Shown: piece after piece, positions 4,880 to 41,270 of the stretch
How the letters are laid out: every line of letters starts with the position of its first letter
How positions within the stretch are numbered: the stretch's first letter is position 1
Assembly (NCBI GenBank): GCA_043806395.1
Contig: JAZDHC010000039.1
Span: 1 to 42,945 of the forward strand
Origin: Candidatus Desantisbacteria bacterium
GTDB lineage: Bacteria > UBA9089 > CG2-30-40-21
DNA: 42,945 bases
Direction of reading: 5' to 3'
Notes under the pieces: model-generated
The model's input: only the letters and a program-made list of their open reading frames with translations
The model's database searches: none
What the model was told of the DNA's origin: nothing
Program-made: the position numbers and the translations under genes

Positions 4880-7800
4880 TTATATCATATCTGCCAAATC
4901 ATGCATCTCTCTATCTCGCAATATTTTATCTGTTTCCTGTGAGCGTCTTGTTTCTATCATGTTACTTATTTCTAACACCCTATTCTTCTCATCCAATATC
5001 TTCACATCCAGACACAACCCTTGAAGCTCATGAACAAGTACATTGAATGATTCGGGAACACCAGGATTAGATGCATTTTCACCCTTAACAATTGACTCAT
5101 ATATCTTTGCCCGACCCATAATATCGTCTGATTTAACTGTCAGAAACTCCTGCAGGACATGGGAAGCACCATAAGCCTCAAGTGCCCATACCTCCATTTC
5201 ACCAAGCCGTTGTCCACCAAATTGAGCCTTTCCTCCAAGCGGCTGTTGGGTAACCAATGAATATGGACCGATAGAACGGGCATGAATCTTATCTTCTACC
5301 AAATGAGCTAATTTAAGGATATAAATATATCCAACCGTCACCTTTTGCTCAAATCTTTCCCCTGTTTTTCCATCATAAAGTGGCATCTTCCCATCTGCAG
5401 GAAGTCCAGCCCTGACCAATTCTTGTGCAATCTCAGCCTCAGTAGCCCCATCAAACACAGGACATGCATATTTTACCCCCAACTTATTAGCTGCCCAACC
5501 AAGGTGTGTTTCTAATACCTGTCCAATATTCATTCGTGACGGCACAGAAAGGGAGTTTAATATCATATCAACCGGTGTACCATCCTCCATGTACGGCATC
5601 TCTGCCTCTGGAACAATCCTGGCTATAACACCCTTGTTTCCATGTCTTCCTGCCATTTTATCCCCAACAGTAATCTTCCGTTTATTTGCCACATAAACCT
5701 TTACCAATTCATCCACGCCAGCCGGCAAATCATCGCCACTTTTTGCTGAAAAATACTTAACATCAATAACAATCCCTTCATTTCCATAAGGCATCCGTAG
5801 TGATGAATCCCTAACCTCTCGAATCTTTTCGCCAAAGATAGAATGAAGCAATTTATACTCAGGGGTAAGCTCTGTTTCTCCCTTTGGTGTAATCTTTCCT
5901 ACTAAGATATCACCGGACTTAACAAAAGCACCAATCCTGATAATACCATCCTTATCAAGGTCTTTCATCGCCTCATCCCCAAGGTTAGGAATGTCACGGG
6001 TAATTGTCTCAGGTCCAAGCTGGGTATCCCTTGCCTCAACCTCAAACCTTTCAATGTGAATAGAGGTGAAAACATCATCCCTGATAAGTCTTTCAGAGAG
6101 AATGATAGCATCCTCAAAGTTATAACCATTCCATGGCATAAACGCCACCAGAACATCCTTACCCAAGGCAAGTTCTCCACCCTGCGTACCGGTTCCCTCA
6201 CTGAGCGGCTGCCCTTTTGTAACCCTATCCCCTTTCTTGACAATGGATCTTTGATGAAGGCATGTAGCTTGATTAGATCGCTTAAACTTTGTCAGATTAT
6301 AATGATACTCCTTGCCATCATCACCTGACAGGATAATCTTTGTAGCTACAGCACGGCTGATTACCCCATCAACATCAGCAAAGGCAACTATTCCTGAATC
6401 TCGAGCTACATAATACTCCATCCCGGTACCTACCAATGGTGATTGGGTATAAAGAAGTGGAACCGCCTGTCGTTGCATATTTGAACCCATCAGTGCCCGA
6501 TTAGCATCATCATGCTCTAAGAATGGAATCATTGCCGTTGAAACACTGATTATCTGCTTTAGTGCTGCCCCGGCATAATTAACCTGAGCAGGTGGAACAA
6601 GGGGAAAATCATCCTTGAATCGAGATGGGACTACCTCACCCAGCAGTTTTCCATTTTCATCTGTAGGAAGACCTGCCTGAGCAATAATACATTTTGTTTC
6701 TTTATCTGCTGAAAGATATTCTAATTCATTGGTTATCACACCATCAACCACCTTGCGGTAAGGGGTTTCAATAAATCCATACTTATTTATTTTACCATAA
6801 ATAGCCATAGATACAATCAATCCAATGTTTGGACCTTCTGGTGTTTCAATTGGACATATTCTTCCAAAATGGGAATAATGCACATCACGAACCTCAAACC
6901 CAGCCCGTTCCTTAGATAACCCACCCTGTCCAAGGGCAGAAAGCCTGCGTTTATGGGTTAATTCAGCTAGTGGATTGGTTTGATCCATGAATTGTGAAAG
7001 TTGGTTTGAGCCAAAGAACTCATTTATAGATGCAGTAACAGGCTTTATATTCATAACCGACTGAGGGGTCATGGTCTCAATATCCTGTATGGTCATTCTT
7101 TCCTTAATGCTTTTCTCTAATCTGGAAAACCCAATGCGAAGCTGATCCTGCAATAATTCACCTACAGGTCGAACGCGTCTATTCCCAAGATGATCAATAT
7201 CATCAATCTCTCCCTCTTTTAACACAATCTTTATGAGGTATTTAAGGGCTTCAATAATATCCTCATGGGTCAATATCCATTGATCTAAAGGAATATTCAG
7301 GTTTAACTTTTGATTTATCTTGTATCTTCCTATTTCAGACAAGTCATATCTTTCCGGGTCAAACAGCAACTTTTCAAAAGCCTGCTTGGCATTATCCTGG
7401 GTTGGCGGCTCACCTGGCCGAAGCACTGCATACAACCTGAGTAAGGCATCATCTGTTGACACACTGTTATCTTTTTCCATGGTATTTAAGAGGATTGTTG
7501 CCTCTATAGACAGAGCCTTAACCTCAACTACCCCTGCCTCCTGTAATTGCTCAATAACAGCCCTGGTTATCCTTGTCCCAATGGGAAAAACAGTGGATCC
7601 AAATTTTAGCTGCTCTACTAATCTCATTTCAAGTAATTTTTCATCTACAGGCAAGGCTTTTATATCAGGATAGAATAATTTGATGATCTCATCTGTTGTT
7701 GAGTATCCCATAGCTTTAAGTAAAATTGTAGCAGGTAATTTTCTCTTCCGTCCCAATCGGACATTAATAACATTATTAGAATCAATTTCAAACTCTACCC

Positions 7801-8311
7801 ATGCCCCACGATAGGGAATAAGTCGGCATGAATATAACTTTTCTTGAGAATCATAGGAAAATAGTATACCAGGGGATCTATGCAACTGGCTGACAATAAC
7901 CCTTTCTGCCCCATTGATGATAAAGGTACCCCTTTTTGTCATCAATGGCATATCCCGCATAAAAACCTCTTGCTCCCGTATCTCACCAGACTGACGATTT
8001 ACCAGACGCAATTTTACCCTTAACGGCACACCATAGGTTACATCCCTATCCCGGCATTCTTCTTCTGTATATTTTGCTTCTCCAAGTGTATAGCTGATAA
8101 ACTCTAAAACTACACGATTATTAAAATCAGCAATAGGAAATGTTTCTGAAAACACCTGCTGTAGTCCTTGCGACTTGCGTTTATTTGAATCAACATGTTG
8201 CTGCAAAAACCATTCATAAGAATCTTCCTGAATGGCAATAAGTGGGGGGATATCAACCACCTCTTTATACTTAGCAAAAGATAAACGAGGGGTTTTCAAC
8301 ATTTCCTCCAT
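4880..8311 (-). CDS. rpoB: DNA-directed RNA polymerase subunit beta
   Basis: Beta-subunit motifs (e.g. [22 protein letters not shown]). Preferred start is ATG at 8311 ([12 protein letters not shown]..) with GGAGG 9 nt upstream. The track start at 8431 adds 40 aa read through REP-like repeats. Confidence 0.96.
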
Positions 8312-8332
8312 ATAATTCTGCCTCCATTTGTC

Positions 8333-8420
8333 TGTAGGAGCAATCCTGCCAGAGGTGCTACCTCCTTGCGATTGCCCTTCTGTTTCTGTAGGGGCAATCC
8401 CTTGCGGTTGCCCTTCTGTA
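8333..8420. repeat. Two tandem REP-like units (GTAGGGGCAATCCCTTGCGGTTGCCC type)
   Basis: TGTAGGAGCAATCC..TTGCGATTGCCCTTCTGT followed by TGTAGGGGCAATCCCTTGCGGTTGCCCTTCTGT. Same GTAGGGNC..GNCCC family as 13291-13382, 19619-19679 and 41201-41239. Confidence 0.7.
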
Positions 8421-8593
8421 TTTGTAAGCATTCAATTAACAGCATTCAGCCAAAACCAGAAAACGAGCCTGCCTGTCCCGTCTTGGACAGTAGAGTAGGA
8501 TAGATACGCACAGACAGTCGTTTATAACAAAACTTGCGTCTTACTTTTCCTTGCCTTAGCTGACAACTGTCAACTGAATGTTTTCGCTGACAA

Positions 8594-8626
8594 TTTCAGG
8601 GCATAAGAATACCTCATGCCCTGAAA
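8594..8626 (-). terminator. Stem-loop in the rplL-rpoB spacer (candidate attenuator)
   Basis: TTTCAGGGCAT / ATGCCCTGAAA 11-bp stem with an 11-nt loop, 43 nt after the rplL stop. The U-tract on the minus strand is weak, so at most a partial terminator. Confidence 0.35.
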
Positions 8627-8668
8627 ATTTTCCAAATTTTGTATGATTTAATTGGTGATTAAGTACAA

Positions 8669-9061
8669 TTACTTAATCTCTACAGTAGCCCCAACCTCTT
8701 CCAACTTTTTCTTTATCTCGGCAGCCTCTTCCTTTGTTATCCCCTTCTTAATCTCTGAGGGAGCACCATCTACCAGATCCTTAGCCTCTTTTAAGCCAAG
8801 GCTGGTAATAGTACGGATTTCTTTAATCACCTGTATCTTGTTTGAACCAAATGAAACAAGAATAACATCAAACTCTGTCTTCTCTTCTTCTTCCTGAGCC
8901 GGAGCAGCTGCACCAGCAGCCATTGGCATCATCCCCATACCCATAGGCATAGCAGCTGAAACACCAAACTTTTCTTCCAATGATTTTACCAATTCAGACA
9001 ATTCCAGAACATTCAAACCAGAGATAGCCTCTATTATCTCTTCTTTTGTTGCAATAGCCAT
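8669..9061 (-). CDS. rplL: 50S ribosomal protein L7/L12
   Basis: 130 aa with the Ala/Met/Pro-rich hinge and conserved C-terminal domain (..[36 protein letters not shown]). Position between rplJ and rpoB. Confidence 0.97.
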
Positions 9062-9106
9062 CTTCCAAACACCTCCATTTACTACAATTCTATATCAGGA
9101 CATATA

Positions 9107-9637
9107 TTATCCTTTTTTTTCTTCAATAGCCTTTAACACACAAACCAAATCTCTCATAGGTGCAGCCAGTACCCTTACCAATCCAGAAAGAGGAGACTGG
9201 ATAACGCCAACCACCTGAGCAAGAAGAACATCTTTGGAAGGCAGTTTAATAATTTCTTTCACATCACTGCTTGTCAATACCGTACCATCTTCAAGCATTC
9301 CTGCCTTGATCTCAAGCTTTTTTGCCTCTTTCATAAAGGCTAATAAGATATTAATAGGGGCTACCAAATCCTTATAACCAATAACCATGGCTGTTGGACC
9401 TGTTAGAAAATCCTTAATAGGAGAGGAATCATTCTCTGTTGTGGCTCTTAATATTTGATTATTCTTGTAAATTAGATACTCTGCCCCGCATTCTCTTAAT
9501 TTTTTTCGCAAGGCAGTGATTTCAAAAACTGTTATTCCTCGATAATCAGTAAGGATAATCACTTTACTATCTTGTATCTTCTTTCGTAATAATTCAACTT
9601 TTTCTGCTTTTTGTTGTTGTGCTATTCGCATTCTCAT
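9107..9637 (-). CDS. rplJ: 50S ribosomal protein L10
   Basis: 176 aa, L10-like N-terminus (..KAEKVELLRKKIQDSKVIILTDYRGITV). AGGAG lies 3 nt before ATG 9637 and 9 nt before the in-frame ATG at 9631, so the start may be 9631. Confidence 0.9.
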   Translation of the reverse strand: MRMRIAQQQKAEKVELLRKKIQDSKVIILTDYRGITVFEITALRKKLRECGAEYLIYKNNQILRATTENDSSPIKDFLTGPTAMVIGYKDLVAPINILLAFMKEAKKLEIKAGMLEDGTVLTSSDVKEIIKLPSKDVLLAQVVGVIQSPLSGLVRVLAAPMRDLVCVLKAIEEKKG

Positions 9638-9646
9638 TTACTCCTA

Positions 9647-10354
9647 TTATTCTTCCACTATCTTCTTAGCTACTCTTGCATCAATTTTTATGCCTGGCCC
9701 CATAGTGGTTGAAATATCTATACCACGGACATATTGCCCCTTAACTGTTTGTGGTTTTGCCTTAAGGATAGCCATAAAGAAAGCCTTAAAGTTGTCATGA
9801 AGTTTATCCATAGCAAAGGAAACCTTTCCAATGGATGAATGAACTATACCAAAGCTATCACACCTGAATTCTACCTTTCCATTTCTTACTTCATTGACAG
9901 CCTTTGCTATATCCATGGTTACAGTACCTGATTTAGGATTTGGCATTAATCCACGGGGTCCAAGAACCTTGCCTAATTGTCCAACATCCTTCATCATATC
10001 AGGGGTAGCAATAGAAACATCAAAATCTAAAAAGCCTTCCTTTATCTTATCAATCAAATCCTTTTCCCCAACGATGTCAGCCCCTGCCTGTTCTGCTTCA
10101 AGAGCCTTTTCACCCTTAGCAAAAACAGCAATCCTTATCTTTTTTCCAGTACCATGCGGAAGCACCACCGTACTTCGCACCTGTTGGTCCGCATGCTTTG
10201 GATTTACCCCAAGCTTTATGGATACATCAACACTCTCATCAAACTTTACAAATGATGTTGCCTTTGCCAATTCAAGTGCTTCATCAACCTCATACGACTT
10301 GGTTTTATCAATCAAACCCATTGCTTGACCAAATTTCTTACTTATCTTAGACAT
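9647..10354 (-). CDS. rplA: 50S ribosomal protein L1
   Basis: L1-like sequence (..[30 protein letters not shown]..). Preferred ATG at 10354 (MSKISKKF..) with GAAGGTG 6 nt upstream. The track GTG at 10363 is part of that SD. Confidence 0.93.
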
Positions 10355-10390: not shown

Positions 10391-10463
10391 TTAGACTGTA
10401 GACTGTCAGGCTGTAGGTAAAGACGAATAACCTATAGCCTATAGCCTATAGCCTATAGCCTAA
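10391..10463. repeat. Hairpin with heptamer-unit arms (GCTGTAG / CCTATAG x4) between rplK and rplA
   Basis: TTAGACTGTAGACTGTCAGGCTGTAGG .. loop .. CCTATAGCCTATAGCCTATAGCCTATAGCCTAA. The arms are imperfect reverse complements, and the right arm is a 4-unit tandem heptamer. Confidence 0.75.
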
Positions 10464-12155: not shown

Positions 12156-12293
12156 CTACTTAGGTATATAGACTGTAGGTGTTTAGGTTGTAGGGTAAAG
12201 AAACAGAAACAGAAACACGGAATTATTAATGCAACACATCTGAAAAACTAACAGCCTACAGCCTAATTGTCTACAGCCTAACTACCTGAGTAG
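12156..12293. repeat. Long hairpin, CTGTAGG/CCTACAG-unit family, in the rpmG leader
   Basis: CTACTTAGGTATATAGACTGTAGGTGTTTAGGTTGTAGGGTAAAGAAACAGAAACAGAAACACGGAATTATT .. AACAGCCTACAGCCTAATTGTCTACAGCCTAACTACCTGAGTAG. Same family and loop core as 13816-13935 and the partial copy at 22345-22400. Confidence 0.8.
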
Positions 12294-13290: not shown

Positions 13291-13382
13291 TGTAGGGACA
13301 TCCCCTTGTGGGTGTCCGGTTACTTCAACCTTTTGCAACCATTCGTTGCATTTTACGGATAGGGACAAGCCCTGTCCCTACG
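13291..13382. repeat. Pair of REP-like units in inverted orientation
   Basis: TGTAGGGACATCCCCTTGTGGGTGTCC ... TAGGGACAAGCCCTGTCCCTAC with a small TGCAAC/GTTGCA hairpin between them. Confidence 0.7.
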
Positions 13383-19590: not shown

Positions 19591-19618
19591 TAAAATTCTC
19601 CTCTTCTTTCATTTTATT

Positions 19619-19679
19619 GTAGGGGCAGACCTATGTGTCTGCCCTCAAATACAGGGCGAACACATAGGTTCGCCCCTAC
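19619..19679. repeat. Inverted pair of REP-like units overlapping the larC stop codon
   Basis: GTAGGGGCAGACCTATGTGTCTGCCC .. GGGCGAACACATAGGTTCGCCCCTAC. The TAG of the second unit (minus strand) is the larC stop. Confidence 0.8.
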
Positions 19680-20821: not shown

Positions 20822-20842
20822 TTGTCTTCTCCTTTTGTAATT

Positions 20843-20990
20843 ATTCACCGCAGAGACACAGAGGCACAGAGAGGGAAATATGGGATGTGTCCCTGCATTT
20901 CCCCTGCATTTCCCTTGCATTTCCCTATCTGTGAAATCTGTGAAATCTGTGTAATCTGTGGATATATTCTTCTCTGTGCCTCTGTGGTAA
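20843..20990. repeat. ORF-less hairpin, CGCAGAG-unit family, with internal 11-nt and 9-nt tandem units
   Basis: ATTCACCGCAGAGACACAGAGGCACAGAGAG .. CCTGCATTTCC x3 .. ATCTGTGAA x3 .. TTCTCTGTGCCTCTGTGGTAAA. Confidence 0.8.
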
Positions 20991-20994
20991 ATTT

Positions 20995-23010: not shown

Positions 23011-23955
23011 TTAAGGTCTCCACTGATATTCAAGGCAGGGTGATTTCAGGAATGAAGAGCCTTTGAAAAGGGCAGTTGGGTTAGAACCTTCTACTAAAGT
23101 TTTGAGCCATTGCAAAGGCTCTTCTTCTTCTATAATTACTGGTTCACCCTTAATCCCTGCTAATTTAGCAGTTATGGCTATAGTTTGCTGATAGTCTCCA
23201 ATCTCATCTATTAATCCAGCTTTTTTCGCCTGGCGACCAGTAAATATTCTACCATCAGCCAATTCTCTTAATCTATCCTCCGGCATATTTTGTCTTCCCA
23301 TTTTTACTGCTTGATAAAATTGCTGATAGGCATCATCAATGACCCCTTGAAGCAACATTCTTTCTTCTTCTGTCATTGGTCTTGACATGGAGCCAATATC
23401 CTTATGTTGACCACTTTTTATTACCCGAAAGTTTACCCCAACCTTTTCCAGAAGCCCTGATATCTCTGGCAGATGCATGATCACACCAATTGAACCAACC
23501 AGACTCCCTTCATCAGCTACTATCTTGTCTGCACTACTGGCAATATAATATCCCCCGGAGGCACAAATATCACCAATAGAGACAACTACCTTTTTGTGCT
23601 GTTTTTTTAATTCCTTTATCTGATTATAAATCTCCTGAGTAGCAGCTACTGTTCCACCAGGGCTGTTTATTCGCAAGATTACAGCCTTGACCAATGGATC
23701 GCGACTTAATGCTGCTAATTTTTTTACAATTCCATCTGCATCCTTAGCCGATGCTCCCCATGCATTCCCTGCTTGACTTTGAAATGAAATCTCCCCATAT
23801 ATTCGTACTACTGCAATCTTTTTTTGTGAGACAATGGCTGAAACAATCCCATTTTGTTTTTTTGTGCCATGAGAAAATACCATACATATTCCAATAATAA
23901 TGGCTACAAGGCAAAAAATAAGTATCCCGCCACCAATCAAGTTTTCTTTTTTCAT
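23011..23955 (-). CDS. sppA: Signal peptide peptidase SppA, 36K type (S49 family)
   Basis: ..RINSPGGTVAAT.., ..GDICASGGYYIAS.. and ..GSIGV.. motifs. Preferred ATG at 23955 (MKKENLIGGGILIF.. TM anchor) with GGAGGAG 7 nt upstream. Confidence 0.88.
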   Translation of the reverse strand: MKKENLIGGGILIFCLVAIIIGICMVFSHGTKKQNGIVSAIVSQKKIAVVRIYGEISFQSQAGNAWGASAKDADGIVKKLAALSRDPLVKAVILRINSPGGTVAATQEIYNQIKELKKQHKKVVVSIGDICASGGYYIASSADKIVADEGSLVGSIGVIMHLPEISGLLEKVGVNFRVIKSGQHKDIGSMSRPMTEEERMLLQGVIDDAYQQFYQAVKMGRQNMPEDRLRELADGRIFTGRQAKKAGLIDEIGDYQQTIAITAKLAGIKGEPVIIEEEEPLQWLKTLVEGSNPTALFKGSSFLKSPCLEYQWRP

Positions 23956-23966
23956 TATCAGTCTCC

Positions 23967-24280
<314 letters not shown>

Positions 24281-24287
24281 CTCCCGT

Positions 24288-26690: not shown

Positions 26691-27590
26691 ATGAAATTAC
26701 ATTTATGGCTAACATGTATGCTGATAAGTCTGTGTTGTCTGACAACTAATGTCTGTGCATCAGAGCCTCGGATAGCTATTGTTATCTCTCGGCAGATACA
26801 GCCTTATATGGCCGTTGTCCGGGAGATTAAGGCAGGAGTAAACGCTGTCTTTTACGAATACAACCTGAATGGGGACAAGAGGAATATTCAGAAAATCATC
26901 GCAGAGATTTTGTCCAAAAATCCTGATATTATTGTGGCTATTGGGACAGAAGCTGCTGATGGCTGTTGCGGTAAGACCGAGGGTATACCAACAATCTTCA
27001 GCATGGTGTTGAATCCCTATATTCTCAAGCTCAATATGAGCGGGGTGGCTCTGGATATCTCAGCCAAAGCCCAGATATTGACATTACGAAAGATATTGCC
27101 AAAGGCTAAAAAGATAGGGGTTATCTATAATCCCGCAGTCTCTGCCTCTTTAATCGCTCAAGCCCAAAAAGAAAACATCTCCATTGTTGCCTCTCCTGTG
27201 AAATCTGAATCGCAGATTGCACCTGCCTTAAAGAATATGCTTGATCAGGGCAGAATAGATGCCTTCTGGCTTATTCCTGACCCAATGGTTGCCAATCAAT
27301 CAATTGCCCGGTATATCTTAGAGACAACCCTGAAGGCTAATGTTCCGGTTTTTGCCCCATCCCCGGCATTTGTGAAGAATGGTGCGTTATTCTCGGTTTC
27401 AGCTTGTTATGACCGGATTGGCAAGCAGACGGTCAAACTTATTGGGCAAATATTGACTAATGGTAATACTCGAATATTTATAGAAGAGCCGGAAGATCCG
27501 ATTTTAACGATTAATCTTAAGACGGCTGAATTGCTGAATATTGTTATTCCGGATCAGGTGAAGAATTTAGCTGATGAAACGATTGAATAA
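26691..27590 (+). CDS. ABC-transporter-type periplasmic substrate-binding protein (ABC_sub_bind-like)
   Basis: 299 aa with a signal peptide and a two-lobe PBP-like pattern (..KKIGVIYNP.., ..DAFWLIPDP..). Sits directly upstream of a histidine kinase. GGAGGA RBS. Confidence 0.6.
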   Translation: MKLHLWLTCMLISLCCLTTNVCASEPRIAIVISRQIQPYMAVVREIKAGVNAVFYEYNLNGDKRNIQKIIAEILSKNPDIIVAIGTEAADGCCGKTEGIPTIFSMVLNPYILKLNMSGVALDISAKAQILTLRKILPKAKKIGVIYNPAVSASLIAQAQKENISIVASPVKSESQIAPALKNMLDQGRIDAFWLIPDPMVANQSIARYILETTLKANVPVFAPSPAFVKNGALFSVSACYDRIGKQTVKLIGQILTNGNTRIFIEEPEDPILTINLKTAELLNIVIPDQVKNLADETIE

Positions 27591-27595
27591 AAGAT

Positions 27596-28045
27596 ATTCA
27601 CCGCAGAGACGCAGAGGCACAGAGAATATATGGGAATAAATCAGATAACAGAGAAAATTATTGGCGCAGCAATTGAAATACATAGGACATTGTGTCCAGG
27701 TTTATTAGAATCTGCTTACGAAGAATGCTTATGTTATGAGCTATCTATGGCAGGTCTACATTTCAGAAGACAAGTTGAATTGCCTGTGATATATAAGGGC
27801 ATTAAATTAGATTGTGGCTATCGAATGGATATTCTTATTGAAGAAAAAGTTGTGGCAGAATTAAAAACAGTGGAAAAATTACTACCAATTCATGAGGCTC
27901 AACTTTTAACCTACCTAAAAATGATGGATAAAAGGATAGGCTTGTTGATTAATTTTAATGTTTCTGTTCTCAAGGATGGAATTAAACGCATAGCACATAA
28001 CTTTTGAATTTTCTCTCTCTGTGTCTCTGCGTCTCTGCGGTGAAT
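27596..28045 (+). mobile_element. 450-bp cassette: GxxExxY gene flanked by ~30-bp terminal inverted repeats of the CGCAGAG hairpin family
   Basis: Left ATTCACCGCAGAGACGCAGAGGCACAGAGA (27596-27625) versus the reverse complement of the right end ATTCACCGCAGAGACGCAGAGACACAGAGA (28045-28016) gives 29/30 identity by hand. Confidence 0.65.
27630..28007 (+). CDS. GxxExxY family protein (PD-(D/E)xK nuclease-like, PDDEXK_3)
   Basis: 125 aa, ..[25 protein letters not shown].. (GLLESAY = GxxExxY) and ..[13 protein letters not shown].. (D..ExK). No recognisable SD. Confidence 0.8.
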
Positions 28046-28066
28046 ATTTACTTTATGAGGTGTATC

Positions 28067-29950: not shown

Positions 29951-32900
29951 CTAAAAATCATACCCCAAACTAAAATGTGTTACCGACCCTGATGGTGAAT
30001 TTATAAAATCCGTGCCCCGGGCATAATCTATCCTTATGGGAAAAACCCATAGGTTTGACCTTATCCCCCAACCAAATGCACCCCTTATCGGGTTTTCAGC
30101 GTCAGCCTTACGGAATACTGGTGGTTGTCCTTCGCGCCATGCAGCACCAACATCAAAAAATACAAGGGAACGAATGTTTCTAATAGATACTGGTAGGGCA
30201 AATTGAATGGTATCAATCAATGGGAAACGAAACTCAAATGAACCCTTGGCAAATGCCTTTCCCATTATTTCTGTCCCTCCCCTGAATTCATCAACAAAAT
30301 ATTGTTTTACCCTTCCATTTTCATCTGTAACAATTATTCCCCCATTGCCGAGGATAAATGTGGTTTGGTCCCGTCCGGTTGAGGTTTTACCGCTAAGTTG
30401 AAATGCCATGGCAGACCTGTTGCCAGCCTTGATATACTTTCGCAGGTCTATCTCAAGATTAGTAAAATCAAGATCATTATTTGAAAGATGGATTGTATTG
30501 CTAACCCCTATCCTTGCCCTTGAACCACCAATGGGTCCGTCCCACGACCAGACAGTTGTATCATGAATAAGATCAGCTGAGACAAGATTTATATTCTCCC
30601 TTTTGGTTGATGGGGCAGGCAAAATACAGTCAGTTACAACCCTTTTGGATGTAAGCCCAAACTCTACTCGACGAAATATATCCAATGGATAGGAAATATT
30701 ACCAGAGATACCAGAATTCTTTTCCTTAAATTCCTCACCGATGAATCTATAGGAATTAGACCAATCAGATATATCTACCTCACAGGAGGCTCTTTTGCCA
30801 AGATAAAGATAGGCAAGGATGAAATTGGCGTCCCCGGCAAGAGAGGATGATGCATCACCCCTCCAGATAATTCGATGGTTACCAAGCACATCGCTCATAG
30901 CCAACTCTCCTACCCCTGCAAATCCATTAGCAGAGCTGTACAACATATCCATTCTTCTCCAGTCAAAGGTAATCCTTGTTTTGTATGGGATTATGTTCCC
31001 ATCTCGGACAGGGACGAGCCCTGTCCCGACAGTAGAGGTACTACCCATTTTCCCCTGCATTTCTGGCTGAATCCAGACGATTGCCAAGGGCTTTTCATGA
31101 AAATAAACAGCATTTCCCCCATTTTCATAGGACGAAAAACTCAGCTTATCGCCCATATATCCACCATTAAATGCCCCGCCAAAGTAATCTGTCACTTGAG
31201 CTATCTCACCTGTTTGGGAGTTGGGAGTTGGGAGTTGAGAGTTGAGAGTTGGGAGTTGAGAGTTGGGAGTTGGGAGTTGAGAGTTGGGAGTTGAGGGTTG
31301 GGAGTTGGGAGTTGGGAGTTGAGAGTTGGGAGTTGAGGGTTGGGAGTTGTGAGTTTTTTTCTCCTGTCCACTACTAACTGCCAACTGCCGACTGTCAACT
31401 GACCCCTGCCGACTGTCCTTTACCGCCCAAATGTTGTATGTCTTATTAAGCAGACACGAGCAATAAACAATATCACCTTCCGGTGACCAGAATGGATCTA
31501 TTTTTGGCAGATCAGGCAATGCAAGTCTTTTAACCTCCATAGTATCCATATTCAACACACAAAGATCCGTTGTCGTTCCCGACTCACGGATAAATGCTAC
31601 TTTATTCTGGGCAGGTGAATAGGCAGGCTGTCTATCCATTCCATGGGTAATCTTTTCCAGCTTTTTTGTGGGGATATTAAAGCTATAGATATTGCTTTCC
31701 CCATTTTTAAGTCCTGAGAGGAGGATGTTGTCGCTATCCTGAGCAAAGCACAAAGAGGAGATATTATCCAAATCTACCTTTATTTTCTTTAATAATTTAT
31801 TATCAAATACATCAAAGAGGAAAATAACATCCCTGTTCTTATATTTAGCAATAAAGGCAATCCTTGAACCATCCCTTGAATAGGCAGGTCCTGCCTCAAA
31901 ACTGAGGTCTTCAAATTTTACCCCCCGCATCCCTTCTGTAATATATTTAACCACCGTTCCATCTGATGTTTTCATTAAGGCTATGCAGGGGATGCCATCC
32001 TTAATAATAGTAACTGCCACAAGATCTCCGCCGGGTGAAAATGATGGGGCAGCAAGGATTACCTGATCTTTGAAAATCTGCTGGCTGTCATCAGCAGCAA
32101 GCCTTCTTTTGGCTACCTCAGGGTAATATGCTTTACGGAGTGATTTTATCCATCCTGTTTCTAATTGTCTAATATCAACGCCCAGTGCTTGTTTGATAGT
32201 CCCTTCCAACCCTGCACTTTTTTTGAATTTTCTCAAAAGGATGGATACCTTTTCCTCTCCATAGGTTTGGGCAATATATCGCAGTAGGGAATGGCTTTCC
32301 TGATAGGCAAGAAATACATTACCAGTCATTCCGAAATCTGTTAAATTTTCTAATGGGTCAATACGATTTTCCACAACCGCATCCACCAGCATCATATGCC
32401 CCATGGGGTCAAATACCCCTGTTTCAAATTCAGCCAACCCCTCCATAAACCACATGGGCGGGATAGCAGAGGCAGAAAGCATGGATTGTAAGCCCTCAGC
32501 ATAAAGAACATCATAGGTAAAGACATGGACAAGCTCATGGGTAATAACCTTTTTGAATCGTAAATAGCTGCCGTCAAAAGGGATAACCATACGGGACTTT
32601 ATAACCTCAGAAAACCCTCCGACTCCTGGGTCAATCAATTCTGTGATAATATTTGTCTGCCGAAAGTCATAATGGGATTTGAAGATAATAAATGGAATGG
32701 GGCTTGAGACCTGATGCCTCAAGCTCTGGCTGATTTTAGCATAAGCCTCTTCAGCCATAGATGCCGCAACCCTGGCTAAATTTTCTGTCTTCTGGTCATG
32801 ATACACCTCAAAATGTTCTGTTTTTAATATCTTCCAGTCAACTTTGTTGTATCTGACCTTATTTTTCCCAAACTCATTCTGAGCTGATACGGAGGAGGTA

Positions 32901-34682: not shown

Positions 34683-34778
34683 ATTTACCTCATCTTTGGT
34701 GATCGGTAATAGTGGCATAATGTCATAGGATAAGTACTTCCTACCTTATTACCCTATGACCTTATGACCTTTCCCCTC

Positions 34779-37832: not shown

Positions 37833-37939
37833 AAGGCTGTAGGCTGTAGGTTAGGAAAGGGAAGGATATGGGATAAATAATCTGTCTTCTGCCTTTCTCC
37901 TTCCTACCTACAGCCTATAGCCTAATAGCCTACAGCCTT
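37833..37939. repeat. Long hairpin (GCTGTAG / CCTACAG units, GGAAGGGAAGGATATGGGATAA loop family) in the hslU leader
   Basis: AAGGCTGTAGGCTGTAGGTTAGGAAAGGGAAGGATATGGGATAAATAATCTGTCTTCTGCCTTTCTCCTTCCTACCTACAGCCTATAGCCTAATAGCCTACAGCCTT. Confidence 0.8.
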
Positions 37940-39338: not shown

Positions 39339-39657
39339 GGCTTTTAGTCTGAAGGCTGAAGGTAGGAAGGGAAGGATATGGGATAATATGGTTCTATCAC
39401 GATTTGTGTGGGTAAATAAGAGATAGGTTTATCGCTTTCATTCCACACCAGAGTATGTCATCTGGAGGTATTTCTACTTCCATGTGCGGGGGTTAAATGT
39501 ATACTTTGGAGTAGTTAAAGCGATAAACCTTCTTCAATACATATTAAGAATGTTCTGTAAGGTTGATAAAGAACCAACTTTATCTTACCCACACAAATCG
39601 TAATAGAGCCGATAATATTTCCTGCCTTTTTCCCTCATACCTTCAGCCTAAAAGCCT
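39339..39657. repeat. Hairpin of the same family as 37833-37939, interrupted in its loop by a MITE
   Basis: GGCTTTTAGTCTGAAGGCTGAAGGTAGGAAGGGAAGGATATGGGATAATAT [insert] GATAATATTTCCTGCCTTTTTCCCTCATACCTTCAGCCTAAAAGCC. Confidence 0.8.
39390..39610. mobile_element. 221-bp MITE-like element with ~26-bp terminal inverted repeats and an 8-bp target-site duplication
   Basis: Left end GGTTCTATCACGATTTGTGTGGGTAA versus the reverse complement of the right end GGCTCTATTACGATTTGTGTGGGTAA (24/26). Flanked by GATAATAT at 39382-39389 and 39611-39618. Internal second inverted repeat GGTTTATCGCTTT / AAAGCGATAAACC. No ORF. Confidence 0.8.
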
Positions 39658-41177: not shown

Positions 41178-41270
41178 TTTCCTTCTCCATAGGTTGAATA
41201 CATGTAGGGGCAGACCTATGTGTCTGCCCTGTATTGAAATTAATCACTTCCCCTCCCCATAGGTTGAATA
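41170..41270. repeat. REP-like unit (41201-41239) flanked by a 31-bp direct duplication (41170-41200 and 41240-41270)
   Basis: The copies TTAATCATTTTCCTTCTCCATAGGTTGAATA and TTAATCACTTCCCCTCCCCATAGGTTGAATA differ by 4 T/C transitions. The insert is CATGTAGGGGCAGACCTATGTGTCTGCCCTGTATTGAAA. Confidence 0.85.

Follow-up and report, generated by a model that had tools for sequence, protein, structure and literature searches.

A repeat that is also present in non-coding DNA is translated here within a conserved protein. In a 42,945-nucleotide contig of Candidatus Desantisbacteria (JAZDHC010000039.1 of assembly GCA_043806395.1, analysed over its whole length and hereafter called the window), the open reading frame (ORF) of a 1000-residue outer-membrane protein contains a lineage-specific, in-frame insert built of two tandem heptamer arrays (Table 1). 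The insert is missing from orthologues and is made of a repeat that the genome also carries outside genes; it falls in what the family alignment and a structural model indicate is a hairpin turn of a beta-propeller blade. We propose that the genome's own dispersed heptamer microsatellite probably expanded in frame within this permissive hairpin and was tolerated there. "Tolerated" marks the limit of the data. A first-pass annotation of the same DNA had suggested, as one of two readings, that an intergenic-type element was domesticated as an inter-domain linker; its repeat origin and its absence from orthologues hold, but the loop lies inside the propeller and domestication is not demonstrated.

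The repeats are real and far beyond chance. Tandem Repeats Finder (TRF) places the main array at 31214-31355 (142 nt, period 7, 20.3 copies, 87% matches) and a unit parse resolves it into 20 units, in keeping with the count of about 20 GTTGRGA units that had been given for this ORF. Sixteen of the 20 are exactly GTTGRGA, the other four being GTTGAGG (twice), GTTGTGA and TTTGGGA, and the longest run of identical units is 3-4. GTTGRGA is the + strand form; on the coding strand the units read AACTCCC, AACTCTC or AACCCTC and are translated as an (NSQLPTP)n-like peptide, the in-frame peptide quoted in the first-pass annotation being correct on translation of the ORF. Across the window, the pattern (TCYCAAC)x3 matches 53 times, against 0 in 100 shuffles, and all matches are confined to two arrays, one on the + strand at 23966-24285 and this one on the - strand. 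The two are 93% complementary over 142 nt, and the unit in the ORF is thus the reverse complement of the one in the leader of the S49 peptidase (sppA) gene, as had been noticed. The presence of the same heptamer in this 45-unit leader array, 7 kb away, supports an origin of the insert from the genome's own repeats.

Next to the main array, across a spacer that is a run of seven A (A/T), lies a second and more degenerate heptamer array whose units are of the GRCAGTY type on the coding strand (RACTGNC on the + strand) and whose peptide is KDSRQGSVDSRQLAVSSGQE. TRF reports 3.7 copies of period 7 at 31376-31401; the RACTGNC x3 pattern covers 31376-31417 and has one further match at 8558-8578, with 0 expected. 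Six RACTGNC units had been claimed: the array is indeed in the ORF and five of the six units fit, the exception being CCCTGCC. No significant copy of this second family was found elsewhere in the window. TRF also detects heptamer arrays at 10392-10462, 12251-12265 and 37834-37938, besides those at 23966-24285 and 31214-31401. The main insert has neither inverted termini nor a target-site duplication; it is a tandem simple sequence repeat (SSR).

The host protein comprises, in order, a signal peptide, a Peptidase_MA_2 domain, a TolB/PD40-like beta-propeller (~aa 300-619), a short linker (~aa 620-652) and an Omp85-type barrel (~aa 653-1000); its start may be an ATG 12 nt downstream (MKHF...), as in the annotation of the homologous protein P0001. 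An exact search with the 1000-residue protein gave no match; its 996-aa form is P0121, which comes from this very contig. Both Pfam matches, Peptidase_MA_2 (6.4e-16) and Omp85 (PF01103, 3e-11, 43.8 bits against a cut-off of 24), exceed the curated cut-offs, the HELVH (HExxH) motif at aa 139-143 is intact, and other family-invariant residues are also kept. NCBIfam yields partial TolB and BamA matches that are far below the equivalog cut-offs (TIGR03303 for BamA, 36.6 bits against 297), and the Pfam and NCBIfam searches detected no POTRA domain. An AlphaFold2 model computed from a 70-sequence alignment reaches a predicted template modelling score (pTM) of 0.82, and Foldseek matches it to BamA/TamA barrels (E ~1e-9) and to TolB. 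The C-terminal barrel is therefore like those of the Omp85 superfamily (BamA/TamA) and the propeller like that of TolB; unlike BamA and TamA, the protein has no detected POTRA domain and carries an MA-type metallopeptidase and a propeller at its N-terminus. By these measures it is not BamA itself. If its topology follows that of BamA/TamA, the N-terminal domains, and hence the loop, may be periplasmic rather than surface-exposed. Homologues are numerous (861 at E<=1e-10) and spread over several uncultivated phyla, the nearest being named Candidatus Desantisbacteria.

The array had been placed exactly between the propeller and the barrel, and this is the one point on which we depart clearly from the first-pass annotation. 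In the AlphaFold2 model, strands at aa 495-502 and 505-512 precede the insert and four more strands (aa 584-586, 595-600, 603-610 and 613-619) lie between it and the start of the barrel. The corresponding segment between the conserved ...YNIWAV and IAQVTD... is a turn of exactly 6 residues in 56 of the 70 aligned proteins (NLETKQ, HLEEQR and similar); the same turn has 72 residues in the window protein. Given this six-residue gap between conserved strands and the four strands after the insert, the site is best described as a beta-hairpin turn within a propeller blade, with one more blade after it; the turn would join the third and fourth strands of the penultimate TolB-like blade. The predicted local distance difference test score (pLDDT) falls below 50 at aa 516-579, with ordered and confident strands on either side, which is the profile of a surface loop compatible with the fold. 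The insert is thus predicted to form a disordered loop that leaves the fold undisturbed.

A second low-confidence segment (pLDDT <50, aa 632-645) lies within the true propeller-to-barrel linker. This linker contains the REP-like (repetitive extragenic palindromic) element that had been reported in the same gene and that we locate at 31006-31026: 21 nt with a fold of -9 kcal/mol (z = -3.2), translated ..GTGLVPVRD... A copy with 2 mismatches is found in intergenic DNA at 13357-13377. The linker also contains a single unit of the GAAATGCAGGG type, which TRF finds as a tandem array at 20891-20925. With the heptamer insert in the turn and a palindrome and a GAAATGCAGGG unit in the linker, the host gene has two permissive segments with intergenic-type repeats. 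These repeat families are found in non-coding places too: the heptamer at 23966-24285, the palindrome at 13357-13377 and the GAAATGCAGGG array at 20891-20925.

Alignment of the orthologues, a check proposed in the first-pass annotation, answers in favor of an insertion. The array is absent from them and is replaced by a 6-8 aa turn or by unrelated repeat-derived inserts, and in no orthologue does a linker of equal length occur that is homologous and free of repeats; apart from the insert, the host protein is conserved and intact. Among the 70 homologues, the turn is enlarged only in the closest, Desantisbacteria-like clade, and there its length varies widely: 8 aa in P0005 and P0006, 13 aa in P0003, 17 aa in P0008, 33 aa in P0002 (a species of 81% identity, Desantisbacteria CG2_30_40_21), 50 aa in P0007, 72 aa in the window protein and P0001, 87 aa in P0004 and 101 aa in P0124, a strain variant of P0004. 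Save for a few flanking codons, the inserts of the clade are not homologous to each other, and their DNA consists of mosaics of the dispersed repeats of these genomes, namely heptamers, REP-like palindromes and a 42-nt tandem unit. In particular, GTAGGGGCAGACCTGCGTGTCTGCCC lies within the inserts at loci L016, L017 and L141, where it is translated VGADLRVC (a peptide present in P0004 and P0007), and it matches the intergenic window copies at 19618 and 41203 (E = 2e-5). The 42-nt unit has a copy number of 2.2 in L016 against 3.2 in L017, a strain difference of 14 aa that keeps the frame, and it resembles the 8-mer arrays (TCTCTGCG)3GGTGAA of the window. Heptamers of the GTCAGTT/GTCAGGG type, similar to the second array of the window, are found in the inserts of L141 and L016. 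Comparison of these sequences suggests that the propeller turn is a hot spot, which the sister species filled with other dispersed elements.

How can such an array reside within a gene? The array is open in each of its three sense frames, whereas TGA occurs in all three antisense frames, making the array tolerable in an ORF in this orientation only, but in any frame. Because 7 and 3 are coprime and no sense frame has a stop, the same Pro/Thr/Ser/Asn/Gln-rich heptapeptide is obtained in every frame. The frameshift arithmetic of the first-pass annotation is borne out: a gain or loss of one or two units leads to a stop 2-4 codons past the array, with products of 577-588 aa that lack the last propeller blade and the Omp85 barrel, and a change of three units keeps the frame.

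Two full-length copies of the gene of this species could be compared, the one in the window and that of L001 (GCA_043823455.1); the two sequences are 98.9% identical over 9.5 kb. The ORFs align without a gap and with 60 mismatches, of which 12 are in the array, all at variable unit positions, and 37 are outside it in a divergent tract (ORF nt 700-1100, ~31850-32250) that looks like recombination from a more divergent strain. This tract corresponds to the peptidase/propeller part, the remainder of the gene being near-identical to L001. The array has 20 units in both strains, in frame in both, and no out-of-frame allele or length variant was seen in these two full-length genomes. The order of the units is nevertheless scrambled (Hamming distance 11/19, 41% of shuffles being as good), and when compensated slippage was sought by a unit-order alignment that allows indels, the edit distance did not improve on that of shuffled orders. 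The difference in unit order implies that the ORF array still turns over. Short intergenic arrays (2-4 units; ~39346-39366 and 34743-34771 in the window, 166-189 and 4760 in L001) are polymorphic between the same strains: a CCTTCAG heptamer array has 2.4 against 3.4 copies and a AAGGTCAT 8-mer array differs by one unit, so that small tandem arrays do change length on this time scale. Since the ORF array has kept its length where short intergenic arrays vary, purifying selection for the reading frame appears to act on this length.

When metagenome contigs were scanned for further strains, the only matches were three loci from the species of 81% identity. A third contig of the window species, L015, shares 99.97% identity with the window. 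It stops after the sixth unit of the array, its six units being the same as the first six of the window, and is therefore uninformative on unit number. Its product P0122 (Logan, SRR27925880) was considered as a truncated allele and rejected: a 1-nt gap (~2729) relative to the window introduces a stop at aa 344, well away from the array. At 9960-10004, L001 has a poly-G end typical of a sequencing artefact.

The longer sister array has a near-consensus promoter on one side and the ribosome-binding site on the other, and appears to be transcribed as the 5' leader of the gene for the S49 peptidase (23011-23955, - strand, with a GGAG that precedes the ATG). The promoter-like sequence, TTGACA-17-TG-TATACT at 24316-24288 on the - strand, has 11/12 matches. 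Relative to transcription, this array has the opposite orientation to the ORF array: the leader RNA would read (GUUGGGA)n, in which the G3N4 repeats fit a G-quadruplex motif and a Shine-Dalgarno-like GGAG recurs every 7 nt. In the sister species the same promoter precedes a leader of ~40 nt with no array (L004 12320-12391), and the S49 protein is 90% identical. As the sister species has neither array, both were gained in the window lineage after its split from the closest sampled relatives.

Beyond this clade, many phyla contain exact (TCYCAAC)x4 arrays (the matches listed include Bacteroidales, Verrucomicrobia, Planctomycetes and cyanobacteria), and Nostoc, Rivularia and other cyanobacteria have long ones among these matches; Desantisbacteria are absent among the 80 (TCYCAAC)x4 loci listed. 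In a rough ORF-span survey, which over-calls in high-GC genomes, 32 of the 123 listed arrays lie in a reading frame that stays open for 80 codons or more on either side; almost all of the 32 have the sense orientation. Such in-frame arrays are short, 4-5 units and at most 11, and none of the 12 listed arrays with at least 12 units lies in a long ORF. Given this maximum of 11 units, a translated array of 20 units is unusual. Used as a protein query, the 46-aa array peptide matched only seven small ORFs of 47-81 aa, mostly cyanobacterial; P0001 itself was missed, and the search is thus little informative. One of the surveyed loci, L045 4143-4199 from a Phycisphaerales metagenome-assembled genome, has an 8-unit array with a 958-codon open frame upstream and a different, 805-codon frame downstream; it could be a frameshifted gene, or high-GC noise.

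Taking these observations together, we hypothesize that an (AACTCYC)n microsatellite and a second, degenerate heptamer array were inserted or expanded in frame within a permissive hairpin turn. The stop-free heptamer would be read as the same heptapeptide in any frame, giving a disordered loop with the fold kept; the array would then turn over by slippage or by in-register gene conversion from other arrays, and selection would hold its length in frame. The insert would in this case be neutral, or at least tolerated. Several points weigh against such a tolerated expansion. The comparison covers only two full-length genomes and one truncated contig, and consensus assemblies hide minority cells with an out-of-frame array. 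Some of the scrambling of unit order could be noise of short-read assembly. The 20 units far exceed the largest in-ORF array of the survey, so that mere tolerance needs explaining. Finally, an identical length with a scrambled order is expected of a contingency locus as well, and fits one sampled in its ON state.

Such a contingency locus is the alternative that deserves most attention, and it is the other reading of the first-pass annotation, a phase-variable surface protein. Slipped-strand mispairing in the 20-unit tract would toggle between the full-length protein and a product of ~580 aa without the last blade and the Omp85 barrel, a switch that would be kept as useful, for example in the escape from phages or predators. 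The unit length, which is not a multiple of 3, provides the necessary logic, with a stop after a change of one or two units and restoration of the frame after three. Moreover, the tract evolves faster than its flanks (12 differences in ~140 nt against near-identity), the window strain and L001 do differ in the unit number of short tandem arrays, the gene product is an outer-membrane protein, and the array is lineage-specific, like many contingency tracts. In known phase-variable loci, SSR tracts mutate 100-10,000 times faster than background (PMC11868660). We nevertheless judge this explanation unlikely: the two full genomes, a weak test made at the level of assemblies, show no length variant or OFF allele and both hold 20 units in frame, leaving the frameshift logic standing with no evidence of switching. 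The tract is also impure (87% matches), which lowers slippage, and it lies mid-gene, not near the 5' end. In the sister species, the same turn holds non-SSR elements and an in-frame 42-nt repeat, all of them incapable of frameshift switching, and the loop would be periplasmic if topology follows BamA/TamA. Extending the contingency idea to both gained arrays, with the ORF array toggling an Omp85-anchored protease and the leader array tuning the S49 peptidase by its length, makes a pair of hypermutable switches that we find rather improbable; if true, it would extend SSR contingency with a rare 7-nt unit to free-living, uncultivated groundwater bacteria.

Selection could also have acted on the loop itself, as a domesticated, disordered Pro/Thr/Ser-rich segment with a role such as that of a flexible tether, a lid that covers the propeller face, or a site of binding or glycosylation. 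The constant length in two strains despite sequence turnover would fit this, as would the repeated enlargement of the same turn in the clade and a composition like that of typical flexible linkers. We consider an adaptive loop quite improbable, however, because close relatives function with 6-8 aa at this position, the inserts of sister species share neither sequence nor length, the P/L/S alternation varies freely between strains, and the sequence of the peptide follows from a DNA repeat that is non-coding elsewhere. Far less credible still is that the array, or its in-frame length, was produced by short-read assembly. Tandem repeats are hard to assemble, L015 breaks off 6 units into the array, the assemblies disagree in unit order and L001 ends in poly-G junk; but the site, the flanks and the length of the array are identical in two separate assemblies, a third contig enters it with the first six units of the window, and in both full-length assemblies the array leaves the ORF uninterrupted. 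Equally, the arrays at 23966-24285 and 31214-31355 are inverted repeats (142 nt, 93% complementarity, 6.9-7.1 kb apart) and could in principle flip the 7-kb segment between them, splitting the gene and swapping what lies downstream of the S49 promoter. Of all the explanations, we lend this recombinational switch the least credence, since L001 and the window are collinear over the ORF array, none of the compared contigs showed the inverted arrangement, and the sister species has the same gene order with neither array.

The locus belongs to known kinds: it is an intragenic repeat insertion and a candidate SSR locus. Insertion of a repeat into a protein is not unprecedented: Rickettsia palindromic elements insert within genes, in frame and compatibly with protein folds (PMC10969869). 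As with these elements and intragenic miniature inverted-repeat transposable elements (MITE), REP and enterobacterial repetitive intergenic consensus (ERIC) sequences, a repeat of non-coding type is here in frame, compatible with the fold and absent from orthologues. The palindrome at 31006-31026 and the VGADLRVC palindromes of P0004 and P0007 are of this kind. The main insert differs: it is a tandem heptamer rather than a 100-150 bp palindrome, it has neither terminal inverted repeats nor a target-site duplication, slippage is a more probable source of its growth than transposition, and the host lineage is a free-living candidate phylum.

The likeness to SSR contingency loci lies in a unit that is not a multiple of 3 within the gene of an outer-membrane protein, with identical frameshift logic, and in a sister array between promoter and start codon. 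Tetra- and pentanucleotide tracts in surface genes of Haemophilus and Neisseria are the phase-variable examples, and 7-bp repeats are found at the hmw promoters of H. influenzae. In contrast to these loci, no unit-number polymorphism or OFF allele is seen in the two full-length genomes, and the tract is impure, mid-gene and probably periplasmic, in an organism that is not host-associated. Heptanucleotide repeats are also known as the short tandemly repeated repetitive (STRR) sequences of cyanobacteria, and long SSRs with units of 5-11 nt occur in non-pathogens. The heptamer arrays described here are dispersed and mostly intergenic like STRR sequences, but they belong to a different phylum and one of them is translated within a conserved gene; the TCYCAAC unit presumably also differs from the STRR units.

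A tolerated expansion of the hairpin would make this locus a clear-cut case in nature of proteins being remodelled by repeat-rich genomes, with fold and frame kept. One propeller turn has been filled independently, in sister species, by heptamer SSRs, REP-like palindromes and a 42-nt tandem unit, and the stop-free heptamer is a frame-independent source of a disordered, Pro/Thr-rich loop. The locus is at the same time a concrete candidate for phase variation outside host-associated bacteria. If the array is merely tolerated DNA, it reflects ordinary genome evolution and is mainly a caution for annotators of metagenome-assembled genomes.

Table 1. Positions in the window of the host gene, its repeat-derived segments and the sister array.
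Feature	Position	Strand	Basis
Host gene, 1000 aa	29951..32953	-	ORF list, translation, Pfam, NCBIfam, AlphaFold2, Foldseek
Whole lineage-specific insert, 216 nt, 72 codons, aa 512-583	31205..31420	-	Family alignment, AlphaFold2, orthologous-locus DNA
Heptamer array, ~20 units	31213..31355	-	TRF, unit parse, pattern against shuffles
Second, degenerate heptamer array, ~6-8 units	31362..31420	-	TRF, pattern search
REP-like palindrome GGACAGGG-ACGAG-CCCTGTCC, 8-bp stem, 5-nt loop	31006..31026		Fold, near-copy
Single GAAATGCAGGG-type unit	31049..31063		15/15 nt match to 20898-20912, E = 0.006
Sister heptamer array, 45.7 units	23966..24285	-	TRF

Other dispersed elements were observed in the window and in related contigs. 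A family of REP-like palindromes, TGTAGGGGCAGACCTATGTGTCTGCCCT (fold -9 kcal/mol, z = -4.1), has copies at 19618-19645 and 41203-41230 and variants at 8387-8414 and 13291-13318; in two sister species (L016/L017 and L141) the element is translated VGADLRVC inside the orthologous genes. L016 also has, at 8719-8746, an inverted copy of 27-28 nt of the 42-nt loop unit (89-93% identity) within a P-type ATPase gene (7183-9909), possibly one more case of a repeat inserted into a gene. Another family, MITE-like, has inverted tandem 8-mers as its boundaries, TTCACC(GCAGAGAC)n ... (TCTCTGCG)nGGTGAA, with copies at 270-363, 20835-20991 and 27588-28050 in the window and at 9590-9845 in L001. The copy at 27588-28050 encloses a 125-aa ORF and lies between the genes of an ABC substrate-binding protein and a histidine kinase; that of L001 directly follows the stop of the outer-membrane protein gene, where the window has none, and the family thus shows presence/absence polymorphism between strains. 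Among contigs of the CG2_30_40_21 species, a 9-mer array (GACAGGTCA, x4.4, at L005 3303-3342) is variably present (compare L004 and L002), and the strains that differ in it encode an identical outer-membrane protein. The called lengths of the products of two neighbouring genes also vary among the strains of that species, 259-317 aa for the ABC substrate-binding protein and 515-541 aa for the histidine kinase.

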